Positions 1-64,000 of a stretch of DNA of 64,000 bases are shown one piece after another (the stretch's first letter is position 1; each line of letters begins with the position of its first letter). Below the pieces are notes generated by a model. The model saw only the letters and a list, made by a program, of their open reading frames with translations, was not told the origin of the DNA and did no database searches. Source of the DNA: an uncultured Bacilli bacterium (GTDB taxonomy: Bacteria; Bacillota_I; Bacilli_A; RF39; UBA660); NCBI GenBank assembly GCA_944371955.1, contig CALVYB010000001.1:422-64421 (forward strand), read 5' to 3'. The translations under genes were made by a program, and so were the position numbers.

Positions 1-1064
1 ACTCTTGCCCTAACAGAGGTAAAACTTGTGTTATTTCTAATTGCGTAAATTTTAAAGAAGAAAAATGTCCTTTACTTGATAAACCTCCCTATGTTTGTAA
101 TGGATGTAAGCAAAAAACTCAATGTACTTTAACGAAACATATCTATGATGCTACTTTTGCCTTTCAAGAATATAGAGATGTTTTAATTGAAACTAGACAA
201 GGACTTTGGATTGATCAATCTGAAATAGATTACCTTAATTCTATTTTAGTTCCTTTAATTAAAATTCAAAATCAGTCCATTCATCAAGCTTTAGTAAATA
301 ATAAAAACAAAATTATGTTTAGTGATAAGACTATTTATAAGTTTATTGATTTAGGACTTTTAGATATTAGAAATATTGATTTACCTAGAAAAGTTAGATT
401 TAGACCAAGAAAGAAAAAAACTGCTATTTATAAAATAGATAAGACTTGTCTTGTTGGAAGAACTTATGAAGACTTTTTAGAGTATATGCAAAAACACCCT
501 GATACTCCCATTGTCCAAATGGATACTGTTGAAGGGATAAAAGGAGGTAAAGTGTTACTTACTATTCACTTTGTCAATTGTTCTTTTATGCTAGCTTTTA
601 TTAGAAATCATAATGACGCTCAATCTGTTATTGATATCTTTAATTATCTTCAAAATACATTGGGAATAGATAAGTTCAAAGAATTGTTTGTTTTAATACT
701 AACTGATAATGGTTCTGAGTTTTCTAATCCTACTGAAATTGAATTTAATCTTGGTACTGGAGAAAAAAGAACACAAATATTTTATTGCCATCCATCTAGT
801 CCTTATGAAAAAGGTTCTTGTGAAGTAAATCATGAGTTACTTAGAAGAATATTACCAAAAGGTACTTCTTTTGATAAGTTAAATCAAGAAGACATTAATT
901 TAATGATGTCACACATTAATTCTTACAAAAGAAAAAAACTGAATAATGAGTCACCATACTCTATATTCAGTAAACTTTATGGTGAAGACACCATAAACAA
1001 ATTAGGTATTCAAGAAATTGAACCTAACAATGTTAACTTATCTACCCGTTTATTAAAAAAATAA
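1..1064 (+). CDS. IS30-family transposase (5'-partial; reading frame is open from window position 3)
   Basis: Frame 3 is open from the window start through stop at 1064. C-terminal half has the IS30/rve DDE-core signature 'ILTDNGSEF' and the IS30-type tail 'HPSSPYEKGSCEVNHELLRRILPKGTSF'. N-terminal part is Cys-rich. Confidence 0.75.
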   Translation, partial: SCPNRGKTCVISNCVNFKEEKCPLLDKPPYVCNGCKQKTQCTLTKHIYDATFAFQEYRDVLIETRQGLWIDQSEIDYLNSILVPLIKIQNQSIHQALVNNKNKIMFSDKTIYKFIDLGLLDIRNIDLPRKVRFRPRKKKTAIYKIDKTCLVGRTYEDFLEYMQKHPDTPIVQMDTVEGIKGGKVLLTIHFVNCSFMLAFIRNHNDAQSVIDIFNYLQNTLGIDKFKELFVLILTDNGSEFSNPTEIEFNLGTGEKRTQIFYCHPSSPYEKGSCEVNHELLRRILPKGTSFDKLNQEDINLMMSHINSYKRKKLNNESPYSIFSKLYGEDTINKLGIQEIEPNNVNLSTRLLKK

Positions 1065-2396: not shown

Positions 2397-2891
2397 CTAA
2401 TCAAGCATTCTCTCACAAACATAGGAATCACAATATGTATAAAAATCTAAATAAGTTAGAATATAATCATTCGTTTCGCTATCTTTCAAATTAACCTTCA
2501 ATAAAAAGCCATTTTCTAATTTGGTAACTTTAACATAACTTTTTTCTTCATCGCAGAATTTATTGTTTTTATCAATTAAATCAACAATTAATTTTTGATC
2601 AATCATATTTTTCAAAGACATAGTATTAGATTCACCCATATTTTTCGGAAGGTTCTCAACTGTATAATAAGAAATTACTGATTTTTTCATTTCGTCTAAA
2701 TTATTAATAAATTTTTGAGAAACATAGGAAGGAAAAAGTTCATGTAATTTTTCCCTATTAGTAATAACCACAGGTTGACTAACCACCCGTAATAAGTGAA
2801 TACTCAAAAAGCACAAAAAAATCACCAAAATAAATTTTAATAGAAAATTTTTGAATGGAAATCCTCTTTTTTCATATAGATTTCTATACAC
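2397..2891 (-). CDS. hypothetical membrane-anchored protein (one N-terminal TM helix)
   Basis: 164-aa ORF with hydrophobic segment 'FLLKFILVIFLCFLSIHLL'. No domain recognised. Confidence 0.45.
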   Translation of the reverse strand: MYRNLYEKRGFPFKNFLLKFILVIFLCFLSIHLLRVVSQPVVITNREKLHELFPSYVSQKFINNLDEMKKSVISYYTVENLPKNMGESNTMSLKNMIDQKLIVDLIDKNNKFCDEEKSYVKVTKLENGFLLKVNLKDSETNDYILTYLDFYTYCDSYVCERMLD

Positions 2892-2954
2892 CCGACCCCT
2901 CCTATCGAAAATTACATGTATTATACTAACATTTTTTACCTAAAAAATCAAGAT

Positions 2955-3212
2955 TTAATGTAATTTCAATCTAACAATTGTTTGACCACCATTAAAAATA
3001 TCAAGTCTTGCTTCTTCTACATACTCATTGTTTTTTAATGTTTGCTGAGTAGTTTTCCGTAAAACTCCAGAACCAACGCCATGAATGATAATAGCATGAG
3101 ATACTTTCATAATATAACAATCTCTAATAAAATCATTAATCATAATTCTAGCGTAGTCCCTATCAAATCCATGTAAATCCAAAACAGGATACTGGTTATA
3201 TAAGTTCCTCAT
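2955..3212 (-). CDS. Smr (small MutS-related) domain protein
   Basis: Motifs 'LDLHG' and 'IIHGVGSGVLR' are typical of Smr domains. The ORF overlaps the upstream pfkB-family gene by 17 nt. Confidence 0.7.
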   Translation of the reverse strand: MRNLYNQYPVLDLHGFDRDYARIMINDFIRDCYIMKVSHAIIIHGVGSGVLRKTTQQTLKNNEYVEEARLDIFNGGQTIVRLKLH

Positions 3213-4089
3213 AATCTAACACTTCCGAAAGTTCAGGAATAGAAAATCTCGCTCCCACTCTAGTAACAGAAATAGCAGAAGTAATAGATGCATAGTGAAC
3301 CGCAGATCTCAACGAATAGCCATTGCCAATAAAATACGTAAATGCACCATGGAAAATATCTCCGGCACCTGTAGAATCAACAGCTTTAACCGATACAGTA
3401 GGTAAAATTTCATAATCCTGTAATTTGGTAAAACTTCCTTTATCTTCTAACGTAATTATTATTGTATTTTGAAAATATTCATGCAATTTTTCATAACAAT
3501 AAATAAGACTATTTCTATCATTAACATCAATTTTTTGAGAAGCAAATTCTTCAGCAAATGTTTTAGAACAAACAACATATTTAACTAATTTTCCTAATCG
3601 CTTAGTATCTTCCGTCAACCTTCCAGCATCAATCACACTAATTGCTTGTGGATTGGCAATCAACACTTTCTCTGCAGTTTCAGGATGTTCTCCATCGATC
3701 AAGATTAAATCTGCATGAATATCACCGCTATGATTAAGTTTTCGAATAGGATTCTTTTTAGAAGTAATAATAGTTCTACTACCATTAGCCCGATTAGCAA
3801 TAATATAACTACTAGAAGTCATGTATCCAGAATGCACCTCAATACAATCAGTACAAGCCCCAACTTTTTGAAACTCCTCTATCACCTGATGACCATAATA
3901 ATCATCTCCTACAGCCGACATAATAGTGGTATCCATTCCCCATTTAGCAAGCAAATATGCCCCGTTAGAAGCTGGCCCTCCACCGCACTCAATATGATTG
4001 TTTATTCTATATTTCAAATTCTCAGTTGGATAAAAATCCATAGGTAAAGTTGTATCATACGTAGAATGACCAACACACACTACCTTCAT
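3196..4089 (-). CDS. PfkB-family carbohydrate/ribokinase-like kinase
   Basis: N-terminal 'GGGPASNGA' and C-terminal 'DSTGAGDIFHGAF' signatures of the ribokinase/pfkB family. Confidence 0.8.
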   Translation of the reverse strand: MKVVCVGHSTYDTTLPMDFYPTENLKYRINNHIECGGGPASNGAYLLAKWGMDTTIMSAVGDDYYGHQVIEEFQKVGACTDCIEVHSGYMTSSSYIIANRANGSRTIITSKKNPIRKLNHSGDIHADLILIDGEHPETAEKVLIANPQAISVIDAGRLTEDTKRLGKLVKYVVCSKTFAEEFASQKIDVNDRNSLIYCYEKLHEYFQNTIIITLEDKGSFTKLQDYEILPTVSVKAVDSTGAGDIFHGAFTYFIGNGYSLRSAVHYASITSAISVTRVGARFSIPELSEVLDYEELI

Positions 4090-5770: not shown

Positions 5771-6000
5771 ATGAATTACCTCCTAAATAATTATAGATAA
5801 ACATCTACACAAATAAATACTTATCTATTAATTATTGTATACTACAAAAAAGACTAAATCAAACTAATTTAGCCTTAATCACCTTTTTTGTTAATAATGC
5901 CTGATAACAGCAATATTCCTAAAATTTTCACTAAAGTCCATAATATCACTTAACCTATATAGATTTTATTCAAAAGTATATTACTTAAATCCCAACATTT

Positions 6001-7261
6001 TTAACCTATACGAAAAGCTGGAGAAACACCACCAGTTACGCGCGCAGCATTATACAAAGTTGATTCATCATCTAGAGACGTTCTTACCGTAACATAAAAA
6101 CCGTTTATATAATGACTAGTAGCAGACCGTAACCAGAACCACCTTGGCGCACCTTGATATTCCTTAAATGCACCAGTCACATTAGATGCCGTTACACCAA
6201 TTTGTCTATAGTAGTCTAATTGTCGAGTTTGATTAGTTAAAGTATCTCTATAATGATCCACGCCATATATTTCTTTTGTTGATAATAAATATAATTTATC
6301 AATTGACTTAAAATTACTATTGTCTTCTGGACCATGGCTGGAAATCACAATAGTATCAATAATTCCATTCTTTAAATCATTGGGTAACATTTGATAAAAT
6401 TCGTTTTGCAAGTACCTCCTCATCTCAGTAGCAGGCCAGCCCCCCTTATTAAAACCTTTTGGATATTCGGTAGTTGTAAAATTCATCGGGTGACCAGTAA
6501 TTTGATCTGCAAATTCTAATACAAATCCACATGCTGTTTGAGAAAAATCTTCTGTACTACATTCCACAGGAGTTTCTTTGTTAGCTATCCTTAACACATG
6601 AACACCAAGTTTTCCTAAATCTACTTCTTTGGTATCTCCAACATGATACAGTTCAGTATTATTGTTTCTAACAGCCGCTATAATAGTATCCAAAGAGTCA
6701 TCCGCAAAAGATGTTACACTAGAGTCTTTATATGGACAAGCAAAAGAAGTTTCCGCAGGAATTGACCTAATAGTCGCGACTTTAACTTTTACATCTTCTC
6801 TTTCTAATTTGTCAGACTGTTTTTGATCATTTACAATACCATGGCCTTGTTTATCTGTTAGATAAATGTAATATTTAGTAGTTTGATTTTCATTACTATC
6901 TCGTTCTACTTTTATTTTTACATAACCAAACAAATCCGCATTCCCCCCATGGAGATTTACCCCCAGACTCCAACAATACTGGTAAAGAAGAATCTGTTGT
7001 ATCAATCGGTATATAATATGTACCTTCTGAATTTGATAGCGAACTTACTTTATTCTTACCACAAGTAACATCTTCTAGCAACCACATATTTCTAGCACCA
7101 TTAACATATTGTTGAGCAATATTTAAAAAGCTAGATTTTCTGGCATTCTCAATATATCTTGTCATAGATGGGATTGCAACCATCATTAAAATTCCAATAA
7201 TAACTATTACCGCTAATAATTCTATTAAAGTAAATCCTTTACTGTTTATTCTTTTTATAAT
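6001..7261 (-). pseudogene. type IV pilin/pseudopilin-like protein with a large C-terminal domain, interrupted by a frameshift at a G6 tract (two ORFs, 6896..7261 and 6001..7005)
   Basis: N-terminus 'KRINSKGFTLIELLAVIVIIGILMMVAIPSMTRY' is a class-III prepilin signal (G|FTLIE). There is no in-frame ATG/GTG/TTG between the upstream TAA and the signal; only ATT/ATA codons follow the AGGAGG site. The two reading frames meet at CCCCCC (6943..6948 on the plus strand); removing one G fuses them into a protein of about 420 aa. Confidence 0.6.
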
Positions 7262-7386
7262 ACCTCCTATTCTGTCATCTTATCAAAACTAATAAAATAA
7301 CAGTTTCCTAATTAATTCAATTATAAAATCAATAACCGTCATCACCTCATCCCACTTACCAATTTCATAACCTGTTAAATTATAAT

Positions 7387-7605: not shown

Positions 7606-8049
7606 TTATGCCAAAGAAAACATCGCTACAATTGAAGCAAATATATTAGAAAGAGCATGGATAAACCAGCTAGGTAAAATTGAACCATTGGCCTTTTTTT
7701 CATTTAGATATCCCATACTAAATGCTATAATTCCTATAAAAAACACTATAAGCAAAACTCTTGCTACATCTAACACATTAAAAAACATAACCCCATGCAA
7801 TAAGCCAAATATTACACTTTGAATAATATTGGCACTCATATAACCGAATTTGTTAGCCAATCTCTTCAGCAAAAAACCTCTAAATAACAGTTCTTCTGGC
7901 AATGATGTATTAAAAACCGAGTAGATAAGCGCAGGTAATAATCCTTTTATTCCCATTCCGTTAAATTCAGATACTGCTGTTTCAACATCTTTTATCAAAT
8001 AAATTATAATAGAGGAAATTACAATATAACTTACCGCTATTATAAACAT
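7606..8049 (-). CDS. CPBP family intramembrane metalloprotease (CAAX protease / bacteriocin-immunity-like); probably extends to 8221 through a homopolymer frameshift
   Basis: 'EELLFRGFLL...FGLLHG' CPBP motifs. A 50-aa TM-containing ORF (8221..8069, 'MSIVLVNTIISSIMQIFLFSLVTLIWWLA...') joins this frame if one A is removed from the A7 run (T7 at 8087..8093 on the plus strand). Confidence 0.65.
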   Translation of the reverse strand: MFIIAVSYIVISSIIIYLIKDVETAVSEFNGMGIKGLLPALIYSVFNTSLPEELLFRGFLLKRLANKFGYMSANIIQSVIFGLLHGVMFFNVLDVARVLLIVFFIGIIAFSMGYLNEKKANGSILPSWFIHALSNIFASIVAMFSLA

Positions 8050-8262
8050 AACAATAATTGATTCTTTTCTATTTTCATGTTTTATCTTTTTTTAGTCCAA
8101 CCCAACTAAAAAACAATTCTTTTTTTCTTGCAGTAGCTAACCACCATATCAAAGTCACTAAAGAAAATAAAAAGATCTGCATAATACTGCTTATTATTGT
8201 ATTTACTAAAACAATACTCATAAATTATCATAACTCCTTACGACTCGCTACTTTTACATTTT

Positions 8263-15487: not shown

Positions 15488-16303
15488 TTAATTAGAGGAT
15501 TGTAATCTGTAATTTACAGGCGACAATCCTTTTAATTTTTCTTTAATTCTATCATAATTATAATACTTAATATAATCATCTATTGCTTTTATTAATTCAT
15601 CTATATTTTTATAATTATTTTCTTGTTCATAAAACATTTCTGTTTTAAGTATTCCAAAAAAGTTCTCCATCATTCCATTATCAATACTATTTCCTTTTCT
15701 AGACATACTTTGGATAATACCACGCCTTTTTAATCTTTCTTGATATGATCGATGTTGATATTGCCATCCTTGATCTGAATGAAGTATTAATCCATTGAAA
15801 TCATCACTCTTTTCAAATGCTTTATTAAGCATATCAGTTATTTGTTCCAAATTAGGTGTTTTAGAAATATTGTGAGATATAACTTCACCATTGAAACCAT
15901 CCAATATTGGCGATAAATAACATTTTTCCCCACGTAGATTAAACTCTGTTACATCTGTATACCATTTCTTATTTGGTTTATCTGCTCCAAAATCTCTATT
16001 AATATGATTATCCGCAATTTTCCCTATGGTTCCTTGATAAGAAGAATATTTTCTTTTATTTCTTTTTAATGGTCTTAACCCTAATTTAACCATTATTCTA
16101 TAGACTTTTTTATGATTAACATTATACCCCTGATTTCTAAGTTCTAAAGTAATTCTACGATAACCATATCTTTTCTTATGATCAATAAAGATTGCCTTTA
16201 TTTTATTAATTATTTCTTCATTTTTAATGTCTTTGTCAATTTTCGATAAAGTATAGTAAAATGTAGATTTAGCTAATCTAGATATTTGTAGAAGAATCAT
16301 CAA
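15488..16303 (-). CDS. IS3-family transposase OrfB (DDE integrase core)
   Basis: 'HSDQGWQYQ' and rve-type core. Overlaps orfA in the -1 frame, the usual IS3 programmed-frameshift arrangement. Confidence 0.85.
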   Translation of the reverse strand: MMILLQISRLAKSTFYYTLSKIDKDIKNEEIINKIKAIFIDHKKRYGYRRITLELRNQGYNVNHKKVYRIMVKLGLRPLKRNKRKYSSYQGTIGKIADNHINRDFGADKPNKKWYTDVTEFNLRGEKCYLSPILDGFNGEVISHNISKTPNLEQITDMLNKAFEKSDDFNGLILHSDQGWQYQHRSYQERLKRRGIIQSMSRKGNSIDNGMMENFFGILKTEMFYEQENNYKNIDELIKAIDDYIKYYNYDRIKEKLKGLSPVNYRLQSSN

Positions 16304-16335
16304 AGGATATGTTTGCCGAAGTTCACTTACAACAC

Positions 16336-16842
16336 TTACTTTTTCTTCTGTTGTTGATTCTTCCTTGCTTGAACAACGGCTCTCAATTTTTTTGAATATT
16401 CTAATTCAGCCTTTAAGTATAAATTTTCTTCTTCTAATCTTTTAATTTTTTCTTTATCAGTTTCCTTTACTTTCTTTTTTAACGTTTTGGACATAGTCGG
16501 ACGACCTCTCTTTCGTTCAACTATATTATAACCCATATTTTTATATTCTCGAATCCAATTAAATAAAATACCATTACTTAAAAGCCCTTCATCTATCGAT
16601 ACAGAACAAGCAGATTCATGATTTAACAATACACGATTAATAATTCTTTGTTTTTCAGTAATTGAGTATTGTTTGTTTTTGAAAGTTTCGATAATATCAC
16701 ATCCATGCCTATCTATTAATTTAATTAAATAATTAAGATTATTAGCACGAACATTATATTTAGACGATAAATAACTAATTGATTGTCCATTTTTCCTTCC
16801 TTGATAAATATTAATTTTATCTTTATAACTTAATTTAGACAT
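16336..16842 (-). CDS. IS3-family transposase OrfA (HTH plus leucine zipper)
   Basis: Helix-turn-helix N-terminus with a coiled-coil 'IKRLEEENLYLKAELEY' and a K-rich tail. Confidence 0.85.
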   Translation of the reverse strand: MSKLSYKDKINIYQGRKNGQSISYLSSKYNVRANNLNYLIKLIDRHGCDIIETFKNKQYSITEKQRIINRVLLNHESACSVSIDEGLLSNGILFNWIREYKNMGYNIVERKRGRPTMSKTLKKKVKETDKEKIKRLEEENLYLKAELEYSKKLRAVVQARKNQQQKKK

Positions 16843-25653: not shown

Positions 25654-27387
25654 TTAATAACTTGCTACAACAAATTTCCATCTCTCAAAATGATTAGAAG
25701 AAGCCGGTAATGAGAAAAGCGGAGTATAAGCCGTACTTTTATACCCAACATTAATATTAGCTGCATTATATGGAGAAATTGTATAATATCCATTTCCTAA
25801 AGGTGTAATAGTAAGGTTTTGATTAACAGAAGATAAATTAGGAGAATTCAAATAAACCATCGCTTCAGACGACAATACAACAAAATCTTTCTGAAATTGA
25901 GCATTTTGAATATGATAATAACCACCATTTTTATAAACTCTCCACGCTTGATTATCTTCTCCTGTAAATAGTTGCATAGTAGCAGCAAAGTTGTCACCTT
26001 CCTGTTGAAGGGTCAAAACCTTATTATCACTAGCAGAAGAAAAAATATAATAATTGTTTTCTGGCAAATCACCAGTGGAATCATATTGAAATGTATTATA
26101 ACGAATACCATCAGAAGTTTCATATTCGTTTTGTTGACCAACAGTAGAAAGATCACTACTAGCCACTCTAAGTGGAACCCACGTGCTTTTATCAGCGCTT
26201 ACCAATAATTCGTGTCCAGTTACTCTAGATGATGAACTAGTATAAGAATAATTATGCCATACCGCTATTTCATCTAAATCCATCGGACTCTCCAATTGAT
26301 AAATTACACATTTTCGACCGCTTCCATTTATACTAGCATAAGTTCCAGGTGCATCAGCTTTACCATCATTAATAAGCGCAGTATTACTAAGGGTCCCTCC
26401 AATAGTTTCTACATAAGTTAGTTCTTGGCGAACACCGTTGCGTATAGCTTGTATTTCTACCCACTTTCCAATATTAGTACCACTACTAGATCCCGTAACG
26501 CAATCTTGGATATACATAACTTGATTTAGCTTAGTATTACTGCCTCTTCGAGGAGGTGTATTAACGTCATTATCAGACACCTTAGTAATTTTAAACTTAC
26601 CAACTCCAGAGTTGACGCCTGAAATCATCATACCATTATAAATAACGGGGGTATATGACTCTAGCACCATAGAACCACTAGAATTATATTTTCCACGATG
26701 AATCTGAAAAGTTTTAACAGTCTGATTAGTAGAAGAGCGCACGCCCGCATGCCCAGCTATATAGGAAGAGCCACCACCTGTACTAGTAGATCCTCCGTAT
26801 CCTCCTCCACCAGAACTACTAGCACTAGTCATCGTCTGAGTACCAGGGCTGCTACCTTTTCCAGCTATAGCTCCTCCATCACCAGTTGAACCACCACCAC
26901 CAGCTACCATAATACGAGAATCTAATGACTGAGAATCATTCCACTCTCCCGAAATAAGCCTAACATCACTAGCACCGCCACCAGTACTACCACTGTTAAA
27001 AGTATCATTAGCTCCTCCTTGAGCACCAAGATAAAAATAAAGATAATCATTATCTTCCAAAAAAATAATCCCAGAAGTATAGGAACCTCGTCCAGCATTA
27101 GCACCAGTTCCTCCGCTAGCACCCCATAATTCAATCTTATACCATCCTGCATCTGGAACAATAAATTGTCTTCCTTGAGCATCAACTACCCCACCAATAT
27201 ATTCTCCTTCCGTATTAGCAAGACTCAATCGATTAAGTTCATCTTCAACCTTGTCAACAAAAGTCACAGTATTTTGTCGGTTAGTACTTAAATTGCCAAA
27301 CAAAGCCAAAACAATTAATAAAGACATTATCATAAGCCCATATAATAATGTAGAAATAGCAAAACCTCGATTGTTTAACTTTTTCAT
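25654..27387 (-). CDS. pilin-like (prepilin-type N-terminus) surface protein with a Gly-rich domain and a C-terminal ricin-B (QxW) lectin domain
   Basis: N-terminus 'MKKLNNRG|FAISTLLYGLMIMSLLIVLALF' has the prepilin G|F cleavage context but lacks Glu5. Long G/S/T-rich tracts follow. The C-terminus carries QxW-type repeats ('DNQAWRVY', 'FERWKFV') typical of ricin-type beta-trefoil lectins. Confidence 0.6.
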   Translation of the reverse strand: MKKLNNRGFAISTLLYGLMIMSLLIVLALFGNLSTNRQNTVTFVDKVEDELNRLSLANTEGEYIGGVVDAQGRQFIVPDAGWYKIELWGASGGTGANAGRGSYTSGIIFLEDNDYLYFYLGAQGGANDTFNSGSTGGGASDVRLISGEWNDSQSLDSRIMVAGGGGSTGDGGAIAGKGSSPGTQTMTSASSSGGGGYGGSTSTGGGSSYIAGHAGVRSSTNQTVKTFQIHRGKYNSSGSMVLESYTPVIYNGMMISGVNSGVGKFKITKVSDNDVNTPPRRGSNTKLNQVMYIQDCVTGSSSGTNIGKWVEIQAIRNGVRQELTYVETIGGTLSNTALINDGKADAPGTYASINGSGRKCVIYQLESPMDLDEIAVWHNYSYTSSSSRVTGHELLVSADKSTWVPLRVASSDLSTVGQQNEYETSDGIRYNTFQYDSTGDLPENNYYIFSSASDNKVLTLQQEGDNFAATMQLFTGEDNQAWRVYKNGGYYHIQNAQFQKDFVVLSSEAMVYLNSPNLSSVNQNLTITPLGNGYYTISPYNAANINVGYKSTAYTPLFSLPASSNHFERWKFVVASY

Positions 27388-46016: not shown

Positions 46017-47426
46017 GAGTCTGTAAAAAACTTTGTGTAAAGTAGAAATCCTTTCTATGGTAATATAGAAATATATACCAAGAAAGGATTTTTAAATGAA
46101 AGAAAATAAAAATAATGAAGTAGTAAAATATATATTAGAAAATTATGATATAAAAAATGCAAATGATATTGCTGATGCTTTAAAAGATATGTTTAAAGAT
46201 ACAATACAAACAATGATGAATGCAGAATTTGATTCATCCATGGGATATGAAAAAAGTGATAGCAAAGTAGAAAAAACCAATTATAGAAATGGTTATTCAA
46301 CCAAGAATGTAAAAAGTAAGTTTGGAGAATTTGAACTTTCTGTACCAAGAGATAGAAACGCAGAATTTGAACCACAAATAGTTCCAAAAAATAAAAGAGA
46401 TATTACAGGAATTGAAGAAAAAGTAATAAATCTTTATGGAAAAGGATTGTCAACAAGAGAAATAAGTGATTCAATCGAAGATATATATGGAGTGCAGCTT
46501 TCAGCCACAATGATAAGTAATATAACCGATGCCGTTTTAGAAGAAATAGAGGAATGGCAAAAAAGACCTTTAAAAGAGGTCTATCCAATTATATTTATTG
46601 ATGCAATACATTTTAATGTAAAACAAGAAAATGTCATTGTTAAGAAAGCAGCTTATGTAATTTTAGGAGTAACTCCAGAAGGTTTTAAGGAAGTATTAGG
46701 AATATGGATTGGAGAAAATGAATCGGCAAAATATTGGTTAAGTGTACTCAATGAATTAAAAAATCGTGGAGTTAAAGATATATTAATAATTTGTTCTGAT
46801 GGATTAAAAGGAATAAGCGAGGCTATTAAAGCTGTTTTTCCAAATACTATGCAACAAAGATGTATTGTTCATTTAATCAGAAATTCTGTTAAGTTTGTTT
46901 CTTATAAACACTTAAAAGAATTTTGTAATGATTTAAGAACTATATATAAATCAAATACTGAAAAGGAGGCACGAGAAAATTTAGAAAAAGTAAAACAAAA
47001 ATGGAATTCCATTTATCCAACAAGTTTAAAAGTATGGGAAGATAATTGGGAAGCAATTTGTACTTTATTTAATTATTCTAAAGAATTAAGAAAAATAATG
47101 TATACAACAAATGCGATTGAGAGCCTGAATCGTTCTTATCGCAAATACACAAAAACTAAAGGTGTATTTACTAGTGATAATTCTTTGATGAAATGTTTAT
47201 ATTTATCCACTAAGAACATTGAGAAAAAATGGACTACTAGATACCCCAACTGGGATATGATTTATAATGAATTAAATATTTTATATCCAGATCGTTTAAT
47301 TTGATATTTGAAAATTTATTAAATCATGATAATATTTGATTATAAAAAAAGAGACTGAGTTCTTCAATCTCTAAAAAATCTTGTTACCATAGATTGGTAT
47401 CTTTACACAAAGTTTTTTACACTCTC
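46017..47426 (+). mobile_element. IS256-family insertion sequence with 26-bp imperfect terminal inverted repeats and an 8-bp target-site duplication TAAAAAAA (46009..46016 and 47427..47434)
   Basis: Left inverted repeat GAGTCTGTAAAAAACTTTGTGTAAAG (46017..46042). Right inverted repeat, reverse complement of 47401..47426, is GAGAGTGTAAAAAACTTTGTGTAAAG. The two direct repeats flanking it are identical. Confidence 0.85.
46096..47304 (+). CDS. IS256-family transposase
   Basis: 402 aa. MULE/IS256 DDE transposase motifs ('IFIDAIHFNV', 'ICSDGLKG'). Confidence 0.9.
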   Translation: MKENKNNEVVKYILENYDIKNANDIADALKDMFKDTIQTMMNAEFDSSMGYEKSDSKVEKTNYRNGYSTKNVKSKFGEFELSVPRDRNAEFEPQIVPKNKRDITGIEEKVINLYGKGLSTREISDSIEDIYGVQLSATMISNITDAVLEEIEEWQKRPLKEVYPIIFIDAIHFNVKQENVIVKKAAYVILGVTPEGFKEVLGIWIGENESAKYWLSVLNELKNRGVKDILIICSDGLKGISEAIKAVFPNTMQQRCIVHLIRNSVKFVSYKHLKEFCNDLRTIYKSNTEKEARENLEKVKQKWNSIYPTSLKVWEDNWEAICTLFNYSKELRKIMYTTNAIESLNRSYRKYTKTKGVFTSDNSLMKCLYLSTKNIEKKWTTRYPNWDMIYNELNILYPDRLI

Positions 47427-52127: not shown

Positions 52128-52541
52128 TCAACCAGCAGCGGGAGCATCTGTCACTTCTTCTACAGCAACACTATACTGTTTAGGAAGAGATTTACTATCA
52201 TAGGTATAAACTTCTTCCTTAACCTCACCAACTTCTAATGCCGGTAAAACAATTTGGATATTATCTATCATCTTCTGTTTCTGATTATAGAAAATAATAA
52301 TTGCATTGGTATTCTCTAATTTTAATTCACTATCATTTTTCATTTTTATTTTAAATGAATTATCATCTATCAATTGAAATTCTAAAAACTCATAACCAAA
52401 ACATGCTGTAAAAAGGAATTTAACTTTCGACTCAGTCTTTTCTTCAATACTTGGTTCGACTTGATAGAGATTTAAACCAACACCAATACCCAACATGATA
52501 ATTCCTAATAAAGTGCATATTATTATACTTTTCTTTAACAT
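52128..52541 (-). CDS. small membrane-anchored protein co-transcribed with the pilin-adhesin gene
   Basis: Start set at the ATG at 52539..52541 (MLKKSIIICTLLGIIMLGIGVGL...), which lies 1 nt from the upstream stop (ATGTTAA). One TM helix plus a roughly 110-aa domain. Confidence 0.5.
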   Translation of the reverse strand: MLKKSIIICTLLGIIMLGIGVGLNLYQVEPSIEEKTESKVKFLFTACFGYEFLEFQLIDDNSFKIKMKNDSELKLENTNAIIIFYNQKQKMIDNIQIVLPALEVGEVKEEVYTYDSKSLPKQYSVAVEEVTDAPAAG

Positions 52542-54736
52542 CCTGACTCCCCATTCCCTCCTATATAATCTACAGTGAACCTTACAGAAAATGTTGAAGT
52601 ATTGCCTACATAATCCTCTAAAGTATACTCTCTCCAATATTGACAAGGATTATCTTTATGAGGTTCTCTTTGGCTCAAACACCCTCCATCTGGTGTTAGT
52701 CTATTAGCATAATCATACATCTCAAAACCAGATTTCCAATAAGTCTTATAACCACTTCCGACGTCGGAAGCTTTAAAACTCACTCCCATAACATCAAAAG
52801 ATCCTGGTGTATCAACTAAACACACTGTAGCTGTACAACTAGCTGGTGCTTTACAAAATATATCTTTAATGTATGGACCATTCTTTATCACAACATCATC
52901 CTTATTCTTTTGCTCCACGTATACTCTATCTTTTAATAACACTTCATGAACACGCGGTGCGGTAAGATCTTGCTTAATCGTTTTTTTTGTTACTCCAGAG
53001 ACATTTCCGGCTTTATCTACTGCTCTTACATATCTATACGTTATACCATCACTATAGTTTCTATATAGTTTATTGGAAAATGTTGTTTGATCCCAAAAAT
53101 TCCAGTCATACCATACCTTATTGTTTGGTGAAATTTGGTATTTACTTATTCCACTTCCACTATCCGTTGACTTCGGTACTGGATTATTTTTATCAGTACT
53201 ACCAGCGGTATAAAATAAAGTTGAACTCCATGTATTATCTGGTAACGATTGCCAACTACCATTTACTAATTCTACAGCCGGTGCGCTTGGAGCTGTCTTA
53301 TCAATTTTTACCGTTTGATTGGCAGGACAGTCAGTAGAATTACCAGCATTATCATAAACTTTACCAGGGCCTTCAGTTGTCGAATTAATATCTTTCGTAT
53401 ACTTCTTAATAACATCTGTTGTACAACCGCTTAAATTATCACTACAATCCCCAGTCAATGTTCTGGCACCGTTTGTCCACGCCGCATTACCACCGCTAGA
53501 AACACAGGTTGGAGGTGTTTTGTCAATATACGTATTAACAGTACAATTTCTACTATTACCAGCATTATCTTCTATCACAACAACACCAGTTTTACCTTCT
53601 GAAGAAATAGTTTCACTATAAGTATCTTTTACACATTCACTTCCACCCGTATCATTACAAGCAACTGTTACTTCTTGATTTTGATTAGTCCAAGTCTTAT
53701 TCTCACCACTTTTACTTCCGCAAGATGGTTTATCAACATCTAAATAAACATCTACTTCACAAGTATTAGTATTACCTGCATTATCCTCGATAGTAAAGGT
53801 ATAAGTTTTAATACTTGAGCCAAAATATTTACTATAAGAAGTTTCCTTACAACCACTAGCTGCATCATCACAAGCCTGTTCTATTTTAAAAGGAGTATTT
53901 GACCATGTTGTCTTATCACCACTGCTATCTCCACAAACAGGTTTATCATTATCTATCTTATAAATTCCTGCCACAGTATCAATAACTGTTTGATTACCTA
54001 AAGCATCTTGAATCCCATTAGTTGAAGAAGAATACCAAGGACGAACTACTAATTTATATTGTCCTGTCACGGTAGGAATGTTACTAGTTGGAATTTTATC
54101 AGTTACTTTCTTCACACCTTTTTTATTTTTATAATTATGAGTATATTCTTCGCTTACTTTTGTCCCAGAGATATCAGTCCAATAATATATAATACCAATA
54201 TTTTTATTCAATGTGTAATCATCTGATATTATAATACTTATTTTTAAATTTTTTGACTGTACCCAGTCACGACTAGATGGAGAAATAGTAACCGTAGGTC
54301 CTTTGGTATCTGGTTCATTGGTACATAAATCGGTATCTATCTTTTTTTCATAAACTATTTTCTCACTATTTCTACAAGTAATAGCTGTTGAATATAAATA
54401 ATTATCATTAACTTTTCTAACTTCTACATACGTTTCAGCATCATTACTACAAGTAATATTTTTATCACCAAAATCTTTAATTAAATTTTGTTTTTTTAGT
54501 TCTGAATAAGGAACTGTAACACATCCAGAAGTATTATTTCCAAATAAATCTTTAGAACGAGAATCTATATATAATTTAGCTCCACTCTCAATAGAACTAT
54601 AATAAGCATCATACTTCTTATTTTTATTTGCACTTTGAATTTTAGAGACTTGAGGTAATGCCAATATTAAAATTACTCCCATAATGGCTATTACTACAAT
54701 CAATTCAACCAAAGTAAAACCTTTATTATTTCTCAT
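52535..54736 (-). CDS. modular type IV pilin-like adhesin: class-III prepilin N-terminus fused to tandem Cys-containing Ig-like repeats
   Basis: N-terminus 'MRNNKG|FTLVELIVVIAIMGVILILALP' is a canonical prepilin signal with Glu5. Three or four repeats of roughly 70 aa follow, of the form 'DKP.CG...G....WTN......AC.D..SGC....Y........TF.IEDNAGN...C.V.VY.D'. The C-terminus is Cys-rich. 733 aa. Confidence 0.7.
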   Translation of the reverse strand: MRNNKGFTLVELIVVIAIMGVILILALPQVSKIQSANKNKKYDAYYSSIESGAKLYIDSRSKDLFGNNTSGCVTVPYSELKKQNLIKDFGDKNITCSNDAETYVEVRKVNDNYLYSTAITCRNSEKIVYEKKIDTDLCTNEPDTKGPTVTISPSSRDWVQSKNLKISIIISDDYTLNKNIGIIYYWTDISGTKVSEEYTHNYKNKKGVKKVTDKIPTSNIPTVTGQYKLVVRPWYSSSTNGIQDALGNQTVIDTVAGIYKIDNDKPVCGDSSGDKTTWSNTPFKIEQACDDAASGCKETSYSKYFGSSIKTYTFTIEDNAGNTNTCEVDVYLDVDKPSCGSKSGENKTWTNQNQEVTVACNDTGGSECVKDTYSETISSEGKTGVVVIEDNAGNSRNCTVNTYIDKTPPTCVSSGGNAAWTNGARTLTGDCSDNLSGCTTDVIKKYTKDINSTTEGPGKVYDNAGNSTDCPANQTVKIDKTAPSAPAVELVNGSWQSLPDNTWSSTLFYTAGSTDKNNPVPKSTDSGSGISKYQISPNNKVWYDWNFWDQTTFSNKLYRNYSDGITYRYVRAVDKAGNVSGVTKKTIKQDLTAPRVHEVLLKDRVYVEQKNKDDVVIKNGPYIKDIFCKAPASCTATVCLVDTPGSFDVMGVSFKASDVGSGYKTYWKSGFEMYDYANRLTPDGGCLSQREPHKDNPCQYWREYTLEDYVGNTSTFSVRFTVDYIGGNGESGC

Positions 54737-63623: not shown

Positions 63624-64000
63624 TCAAAAACCAAGTAGTGCAACCAACACCTCTGGAGTAAGTTTAATAAAATACAAAAAGGTAAACGCAAGAAGTAAAA
63701 ATGGTCCAAAAGGAATCATTTTTTCTTTGTTTTTATACAATAAAAATAAAGACATTGGCAAAGCAAAAACACTTCCCAAAAATATTGCAACAGTACCTAA
63801 AAGAGGATCTAAAACAAGTCCAAACACAAACATCATTTTAACATCCCCACCACCGAGACTTTCCTTTTTTAAACTTTTTTCTCCCAACCACATAATTGCG
63901 TACATTAAAGAAAAAAGAAAAACTCCAGTAAAAATATGTTTTAAAGTATCTATAGCACCCACAGACAAAAACTGAACAATAATAAAATAAATAGAAAAAA
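63624..64000 (-). CDS. prepilin peptidase (A24 family), 3' portion; N-terminus lies beyond the window end
   Basis: Frame is open to position 64000. C-terminal motifs 'GGGDVKMMFVFGLVL' and 'IPFGPFLLLA' are typical of PilD/ComC-type peptidases. Confidence 0.7.
   Translation of the reverse strand, partial: FSIYFIIVQFLSVGAIDTLKHIFTGVFLFSLMYAIMWLGEKSLKKESLGGGDVKMMFVFGLVLDPLLGTVAIFLGSVFALPMSLFLLYKNKEKMIPFGPFLLLAFTFLYFIKLTPEVLVALLGF

Follow-up and report, generated by a model that had tools for sequence, protein, structure and literature searches.

The DNA analysed here (hereafter the window) is a 64,000-nt stretch of contig CALVYB010000001.1, positions 422 to 64,421 of the forward strand, from an uncultured member of the Bacilli. 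On its minus strand, from position 7258 down to 6001, it carries a type IV pilin-like gene with a C-terminal DUF6273 module that has lost both its start codon and its continuous reading frame and that, compared with the same locus in other strains of the species, is very probably a decaying pseudogene. The features of this locus, including a hairpin that lies 3' of it, are the following.

6001..7258, minus strand: pseudogene, type IV pilin-like with a C-terminal DUF6273 (C-type-lectin-like) module, as matched by Pfam on the repaired product; the intact form has 418 aa.
7263..7268, minus strand: Shine-Dalgarno site AGGAGG, 4 nt 5' of the original start, kept in every full-length allele; the intact ones have ATG at the same spacing.
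7256..7258, minus strand: lost start codon, ATA here versus ATG in intact and single-G-deletion alleles (alignment).
7175..7255, minus strand: class III (prepilin) signal with basic leader KRINSKG, G/F cleavage site, Glu at +5 and hydrophobic alpha1-N helix (Pfam N_methyl).
6943..6948, minus strand: G tract 1, a frame-shifting G6; G5 in all ten other full-length conspecific alleles.
6896..6898, minus strand: premature TAG after the frameshift (list of open reading frames, ORFs, and sequence check).
6691..6693, minus strand: missense TGG to TTG (W189L) at a family-invariant Trp, in this allele only (alignment).
6440..6445, minus strand: G tract 2, AAG GGG GGC (Lys-Gly-Gly), an in-frame G6; G7 in six other strains (alignment).
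6004..6714, minus strand: C-terminal DUF6273 module (Pfam match about 6483..6007; conserved block from about SFADDSW).
6267..7085, minus strand: segment absent from one class of conspecific alleles (contigs L005-L011), flanked by imperfect direct repeats AGAAATAT(G/A)TGG.
5846..5876, minus strand: terminator-like hairpin and U run, 3' of the gene (folding).

Read on the minus strand, the AGGAGG site (7268..7263) is followed by a single T and then by ATT (7261..7259) and ATA (7258..7256), and the in-frame codons back to the upstream TAA (D D R I G G I I K) include no ATG, GTG or TTG. The prepilin motif KRINSKG/FTLIELLAVIVIIGIL is present 3' of AGGAGG (signal letters K R I N S K G / F T L I E L L A V I V I I G I L, the slash marking the cleavage site), and KRINSKG/FTLIELLAVIVIIGILMMVAIP shows everything expected of a class III signal, namely a basic leader ending in Gly, Phe at +1, Glu at +5 and a hydrophobic stretch. 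The N-terminal frame, which reads to ...GGKSPWGECGFVWLCKNKSRTR and stops at TAG (6898..6896), joins the downstream frame at GGGGGG (6948..6943); the latter is already open before that TAG and ends at TAA (6003..6001). Removal of one G produces a continuous frame of 419 codons from ATT, or 418 from the position of ATA, and the repaired product then reads ...GGKSPWGNADLFGYV... at the break, in agreement with the W-G-N invariant in the family; with the extra G, the frame ends 16 codons downstream. The original prediction for this DNA, made from the letters alone, had placed the pilin N-terminus, the AGGAGG site and the split at GGGGGG at coordinates that all proved correct when the sequence was re-read, and it had rightly stated that a 1-nt change restores about 420 aa and that ATT and ATA, without any ATG, GTG or TTG, are all that follows AGGAGG. 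It had made no mention of the second G6 run of the gene (6445..6440), and its view that a G6 tract is conspicuous in so AT-rich a genome needs qualification, the window containing three G6 runs versus 3.6 +/- 2.3 in shuffled sequences, that is, no enrichment.

A protein search found hundreds of full-length relatives of about 430 aa, about 50% identical and with the same N_methyl plus DUF6273 architecture. In the repaired product itself, Pfam recognises N_methyl (PF07963) at residues 6-29 (31.5 bits versus a cut-off of 21.2, E = 1.2e-7) and DUF6273 (PF19789) at residues 260-418 (51.2 bits versus a cut-off of 23.5, E = 1.7e-13). The relatives that we fetched all read GGKS(P/S)WGN over the break site and, therefore, the in-frame state is one G shorter; in the family alignment W104, G105 and N106 are invariant, and so is W189. 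The 90%-identity cluster of the C-terminal ORF of the window gene holds two intact 418-aa proteins, P0124 and P0126, with N-termini MKRINSKGFTLIELL..., whose contigs (L002 and L003) have about 99% DNA identity to the window locus and the same gene order, with an Rce1-like gene and a 68-aa ORF upstream and a hydrogenase gene downstream. In the window, the Rce1-like gene (CAAX protease family; 7606..8221, minus strand) is split into ORFs of 48 and 147 aa by an A7 run at 8093..8087; the Rce1-like gene of every other conspecific strain has A6 and forms one ORF of 191-204 aa, A7 being confined to the lineage of the window and contig L001.

The four homologues at about 50% identity for which DNA was read (L018-L021) all have an ATG start after a purine-rich site. 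Since both the intact alleles and these homologues use ATG, the ATT/ATA of the window represents a mutated start and not a conserved non-canonical one. The homologues read TGGGGA (G4) at tract 1 and GGTGGC or GGAGGA at tract 2, encoding the Gly codons with GGA, GGT or GGC, and thus have no G runs at either site. At the homologue locus L020/L021, an IS3-type insertion sequence (IS) element with an rve integrase-core domain is found directly after the pilin-DUF6273 gene.

We fetched 20 conspecific loci besides the window, on contigs with 98.5-100% identity. The full-length alleles were aligned with MAFFT and the deletion junction of L005-L011 was mapped separately, which distinguishes the following allele classes.

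Class A, intact (L002, L003): ATG, tract 1 G5, tract 2 G6.
Class B (window, L001): ATA, tract 1 G6, W189L, D160V.
Class C1 (L004, L012, L014, L015, L016): ATG, G deleted at 6792 (GAT GTA AAA becoming GAT TAA), tract 2 G7.
Class C1' (L022, L023): G deletion at 6792, tract 2 G6.
Class C2 (L013): G deleted at 6699, tract 2 G7.
Class D (L005-L011): ATA and deletion 7085..6267.

Intact loci are thus rare (2/20) and the conspecific loci carry at least six distinct inactivating lesions. At alignment column 7256, A is found in the window, L001, L005 and L008 and G in L002-L004, L012-L016, L022 and L023; for class D, ATA is documented where the contig includes the start, namely in L005 by direct reading and in L005 and L008 by alignment. 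The class D deletion, 819 bp long in window coordinates and 818 bp relative to the G5 allele, lies between the 12-bp imperfect direct repeats AGAAATAT(G/A)TGG, and the 3' 375 bp of the gene are identical between classes B and D. W189L is carried by the window and L001 only, and tract 1 is G5 in 10/10 other full-length conspecific alleles, G6 being restricted to these same two sequences. The two C1' alleles have 0 single-nucleotide polymorphism (SNP) differences from L014-L016 within the gene, with flanks differing by 0.4-0.7%, so that tract 2 occurs as G6 and as G7 on alleles that no SNP in the gene distinguishes; tract 2 changes faster than tract 1, the one flagged in the original prediction. 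Within the C lineage, two of the single-G-deletion backgrounds have G7 and a third does not, which implies that tract 2 changed length more than once or was moved by recombination. The alleles recur over unrelated studies (record prefixes ONAT22-1 and BRZ; Logan assemblies of ERR, SRR and DRR runs) and, therefore, they are real alleles and not artefacts of one assembly.

Taken with the family alignment, these alleles make it very likely that the locus is a pseudogene in the course of ordinary gene decay rather than a gene with a programmed on/off switch. The window allele has at least three derived lesions relative to the intact alleles (ATG to ATA, one additional G, and W189L); it is disrupted with respect to intact close orthologues and its sister lineages have been hit by independent lesions. 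Because ATA is common to classes B and D, the start was probably lost first, with the G inserted later in an already silent gene: the start codon would have disappeared in the common ancestor of B and D, and the additional G (B) and the deletion (D) would have followed independently. The G5 of tract 1 in intact alleles is an incidental product of the codons TGG GGG (Trp-Gly), and the extra G most likely entered this run by replication slippage. The species as a whole is losing the gene repeatedly through independent lesions. The frameshifted Rce1-like neighbour, together with the adjoining hydrogenase and PfkB genes, which have no indels, fits a decay of dispensable genes. In all this the locus shows no material difference from known bacterial pseudogenes with start loss and homopolymer frameshift, in which several lesions per allele and different lesions in sister strains are likewise found; it is a pseudogene of an ordinary kind. 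The hedge of the original prediction that the gene might be decaying is thus borne out by the lost ATG, the frameshift, W189L and the broken copies in 18/20 conspecific loci. It had also named a uniformly degraded state of the orthologues as one of two findings that would speak against its preferred view, a state that is nearly reached, with two intact exceptions. The locus should consequently carry the annotation of a pseudogene, while labels such as phase-variable adhesin or non-AUG start should be avoided, and these at least six ways of knocking out one non-essential surface gene in one gut species provide a clean example of recurrent loss.

Some points weigh against this interpretation. 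The substitutions over all alleles, 12 nonsynonymous and 15 synonymous, still look partly constrained, which suggests either that the inactivation is recent or that the intact form is still selected in some strains. An assembly error at the G6 run remains formally conceivable, given that L001, the sole other copy read, may come from the same sample. Finally, in Escherichia coli AUA and AUU can serve as initiation codons at about 1-2% of the AUG level (bioRxiv 10.1101/063800), and trace expression from these codons would not be impossible here.

A further alternative, unlikely as we consider it, would see in this uncultured, Bacilli/Mycoplasmatota-like gut lineage a population-level "proto-contingency" gene, whose short G runs at the conserved Trp-Gly and Gly-Gly-Trp codons slip often enough for a de facto ON-to-OFF switching of an orphan pilin-lectin, the at least six knock-outs in 18/20 loci reflecting positive selection for its loss. 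Such loss could serve, for example, as an escape from phage or immunoglobulin A, and intact alleles would persist at low frequency.

G-run slippage is clearly a mutational hotspot in this gene, and the locus is also an illustration of this mode of mutation: two of the at least six lesions add one nucleotide (+1), each to one of the two G tracts, and in the 7.5 kb compared the G/C runs of 5 or more consist of tract 1, tract 2 and one invariant G5, all of them in this gene. Slippage is the likely source of the frameshift in the window since intact alleles have G5 and tract 2 also varies, between G6 and G7. The slipped-strand mutation invoked in the original prediction is in this respect a likely event; the reversible phase variation that it was meant to drive is another matter, to which we return below.

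We regard it as quite improbable that the additional G is a homopolymer error made in sequencing or assembly, the true genome having G5. Assemblies from NCBI, ENA and Logan record the same products, against which stands the 100% identity of L001 to the window over all compared sequence (6.9 kb), as two records of the same sample could show. Two 1-nt homopolymer insertions, the G6 and the A7 at 8093..8087, do lie within 1.2 kb of each other and only in the window/L001 lineage, but the compared 7.5 kb, hydrogenase and PfkB genes included, has about 30 A/T runs of at least 6 and no other indel in any of them, and ATA and W189L, as substitutions, are not errors of the homopolymer type. A gene with G5 would nevertheless lack ATG and carry W189L and, therefore, the pseudogene verdict holds even if G6 is an error.

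Very unlikely, in our view, is a slipped-strand contingency locus in which tract 1 reversibly alternates between ON (G5) and OFF (G6) and in which this genome was sampled OFF, as the original prediction of a phase-variable surface adhesin implied. The gene encodes a surface-type protein, its frame breaks exactly within a G run, both tracts vary in length among conspecific strains, tract 2 even between alleles without SNP differences in the gene, and these length changes shift the frame (G5/G6 at tract 1, G6/G7 at tract 2). Known G/C homopolymer switches are, however, usually 7 or more long, and the ON length of tract 1 would be merely G5. Both tracts are codon-choice accidents at the conserved WG and GGW motifs, tract 1 resulting from the unavoidable TGG of the invariant Trp next to a GGG Gly codon and tract 2 from a conserved Gly-Gly-Trp, and neither is found in the homologues. 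Moreover, the window allele has lost its start codon and one invariant Trp: with ATG gone and Leu at position 189, a return to G5 would fail to bring back normal expression. The six alleles with G7 at tract 2 all have, in addition, an unrelated truncating single-G deletion. Of the six broken allele classes in other strains, five likewise bear an unrelated lesion beyond repair by tract slippage. Every allele with an out-of-frame tract carries a second lesion that slippage cannot reverse (ATA, the G deletion at 6792 or the G deletion at 6699), and no otherwise intact alleles differing only in tract length were found among the conspecific alleles aligned. A contingency locus is defined by reversible ON/OFF switching at a tract that selection keeps hypermutable (review PMC11868660), and the TGGGGA and GGTGGC/GGAGGA of the homologues, with an ON state of G5, show no sign of such maintenance. 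The window locus shares with the poly-G contingency loci of Campylobacter, Neisseria and Haemophilus (PMC11868660) a surface gene with a G run inside its reading frame whose length varies among strains and determines the frame, and differs from them in that its tracts are short (G5/G6/G7) and not conserved, its OFF alleles irreversibly damaged and its start lost. The absence of G6 enrichment in the window also speaks against such a role.

Finally, it is extremely improbable that AUU/AUA initiation after the strong Shine-Dalgarno site, followed by a +1 ribosomal or transcriptional slip at G6, yields some full-length protein, because, even with a strong AGGAGG site kept, the initiation at about 1-2% of AUG cited above for AUA and AUU, and a G GGG G sequence that would permit re-pairing of tRNA-Gly in the +1 frame, G6 is limited to the window and L001 with G5 in all other full-length alleles, ATG is present in all homologues read and in the alleles with an intact 5' end outside the clade, ATA is confined to the window clade and its deletion-bearing sister clade, no stimulatory stop or rare codon follows the slip site, and the combined yield would be well below 1%. 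Non-canonical initiation, one of the two options that the original prediction had left for the missing start, is in conflict with the ATG used at that position by every start-retaining allele and every homologue read. Neither programmed +1 frameshifting nor transcriptional slippage nor initiation at AUU/AUA was accepted as a designed feature of the gene, none of them being conserved.

As to the protein that the intact gene encoded, modular type IV pilins of Gram-positive bacteria offer the closest comparison, in particular PilB, with a vWA module, and PilC, with a lectin module, of Streptococcus sanguinis. Like these, the window gene appears from its sequence to combine a class III signal (G/F and Glu5) with a pilin alpha-beta domain, onto which a ligand-binding module has been grafted at the C-terminus. 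Unlike them, its module is DUF6273, not vWA or concanavalin-like, and the gene, now a pseudogene, is an orphan amid housekeeping genes and not part of a pil operon, with filament assembly remaining putative. Its homologues are also orphans, found amid housekeeping and cell-wall genes and outside pilus operons, and no pilB/pilC-type genes were recognised among the ORFs of the window, which were read by eye and scanned with Pfam in part. A profile of the family run against PDB sequences matched solved type IV pilins (PilE1, PilA, geopilin) over the N-terminal helix only, and no solved structure matched the DUF6273 part. In an AlphaFold2 model built on a 20-sequence alignment, the N-terminal 160 residues form a long alpha1 helix and then a small sheet (helix 11-60; strands 79-86, 109-119 and 125-135), where the predicted local distance difference test (pLDDT) score is mostly about 70-80, compared with 60 overall; the DUF6273 core is poorly modelled, with low confidence at residues 327-410. 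A Foldseek search of this model (overall pLDDT 60) against the PDB returned only noise, with a best E of 0.38. The assignment of the DUF6273 fold in our analysis comes from the published resemblance of this domain to the C-type lectin domain (PMC10743442). Our best functional guess is that the intact protein was a surface protein built like a modular type IV pilin, with a lectin-like domain as its head. The ancestor of the window locus very probably encoded an orphan type IV pilin-like protein, in which a leader cleaved at G/F preceded a putative pilin alpha-beta domain and DUF6273 formed the C-terminal module; this protein probably bound ligands at the cell surface or on a pilus.

Besides the pattern of recurrent loss, which is also noteworthy, the family has an aspect more interesting than the pseudogene itself, namely homologues of this pilin-lectin type that are linked to diversity-generating retroelements (DGRs). 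P0078 (L024/L025), a homologue with 50% identity and the same N_methyl plus DUF6273 architecture, is encoded inside a complete DGR cassette (L024:1-3700). Its variable region (VR, 1365-1440), 76 nt at the end of the variable part of the gene, is repeated as a template repeat (TR) at 2168-2243, with 9 mismatches of which 9/9 fall at TR adenines, the signature of a DGR. The cassette also contains a 179-aa accessory ORF (1568-2107) followed by a short region and then by a 360-aa RVT_1 reverse transcriptase (2535-3617). P0078 is a bona fide DGR target, and the family thus includes type IV pilin-like DGR targets. Many near-identical homologues differ chiefly in their last ~35 residues, one 90% cluster comprising 179 member sequences, a variation that fits DGR diversification.

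The window gene, by contrast, is not being diversified. The 64-kb window has no TR-like copy and no ORF for a reverse transcriptase with a YxDD motif, the 3' end of the gene is without the GC-rich element resembling an initiation of mutagenic homing (IMH) site that VR and TR share in L024, and, over 12 conspecific sequences, the region equivalent to the VR differs at synonymous sites only. A C-type-lectin fold is found in DGR variable proteins such as Mtd of a Bordetella phage and TvpA of Treponema. Compared with these and with the DUF6273-type targets of Faecalibacterium phages, the window gene shares with the latter the Pfam domain DUF6273 and differs by having neither TR, reverse transcriptase nor IMH-like end. 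The Faecalibacterium phage targets have been described previously (PMC10743442, PMC11792537), and the variable regions of DGR targets have been mapped to the C-terminus of DUF6273 (PMC11792537). In one survey, a "GspG-type pilin" domain appears among the rare domains that bear a VR (PMC11661182), and our literature search found no article combining "diversity-generating retroelement" with "type IV pilin"; DGR targets of the type IV pilin-like kind hence seem barely described in the literature searched. Through them, DGR hypervariation would be connected with a type IV pilus-type display at the surface of Gram-positive gut bacteria. Should the population-level ON-to-OFF switching considered above turn out to be true, the window gene would be a fossil of this DGR-diversified type IV pilin-like family, a barely described class of targets.

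Modular pilin-like surface proteins seem to be encoded at several scattered sites of the genome. An intact orphan pilin-like gene at 54736..52535 (minus strand) encodes a 733-aa N_methyl protein, and another intact orphan at 27387..25654 (minus strand) encodes a 577-aa protein with a pilin-like N-terminus, G/FAIST, that has no Glu5 and is not called by Pfam; the latter protein also contains an ALK/LTK glycine-rich domain and a ricin-type lectin domain. At 63624..64000 (minus strand), running off the end of the window, is the C-terminal part of a prepilin-peptidase-like gene (Peptidase_A24-like, with a GGGD motif), which falls slightly short of the Pfam cut-off.

Rfam and tRNA scans of the window gave no matches, and a consensus scan found promoter-like sites at chance level and called no terminator. 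The hairpin at 5846..5876, located between the pseudogene and the [FeFe]-hydrogenase gene, has a 12-bp stem with a folding energy of -10.5 kcal/mol (z = -3.2), and 0/200 shuffled sequences folded as well; it is likely an intrinsic terminator that the consensus scan did not call because its stem is A+T-rich. The window is chromosomal, with dnaK, dnaJ, grpE, hrcA, parC/parE-like and pyruvate phosphate dikinase genes, and has 29.8% G+C. Its ParE (topoisomerase IV subunit B) has 98% identity to proteins of metagenome-assembled genomes with labels such as "Bacilli bacterium", one homologue of the pilin-lectin lies on a contig that we take to be of human gut origin, and the source organism is probably a gut-dwelling member of the Bacilli. 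Judging by eye from their translations, ORFs or ORF pairs at 315..1064 (plus strand), 15488..16842 (minus strand) and 46096..47304 (plus strand) look transposase-like, the second being a pair that looks like an IS3-type two-ORF element and the third looking IS256-like.

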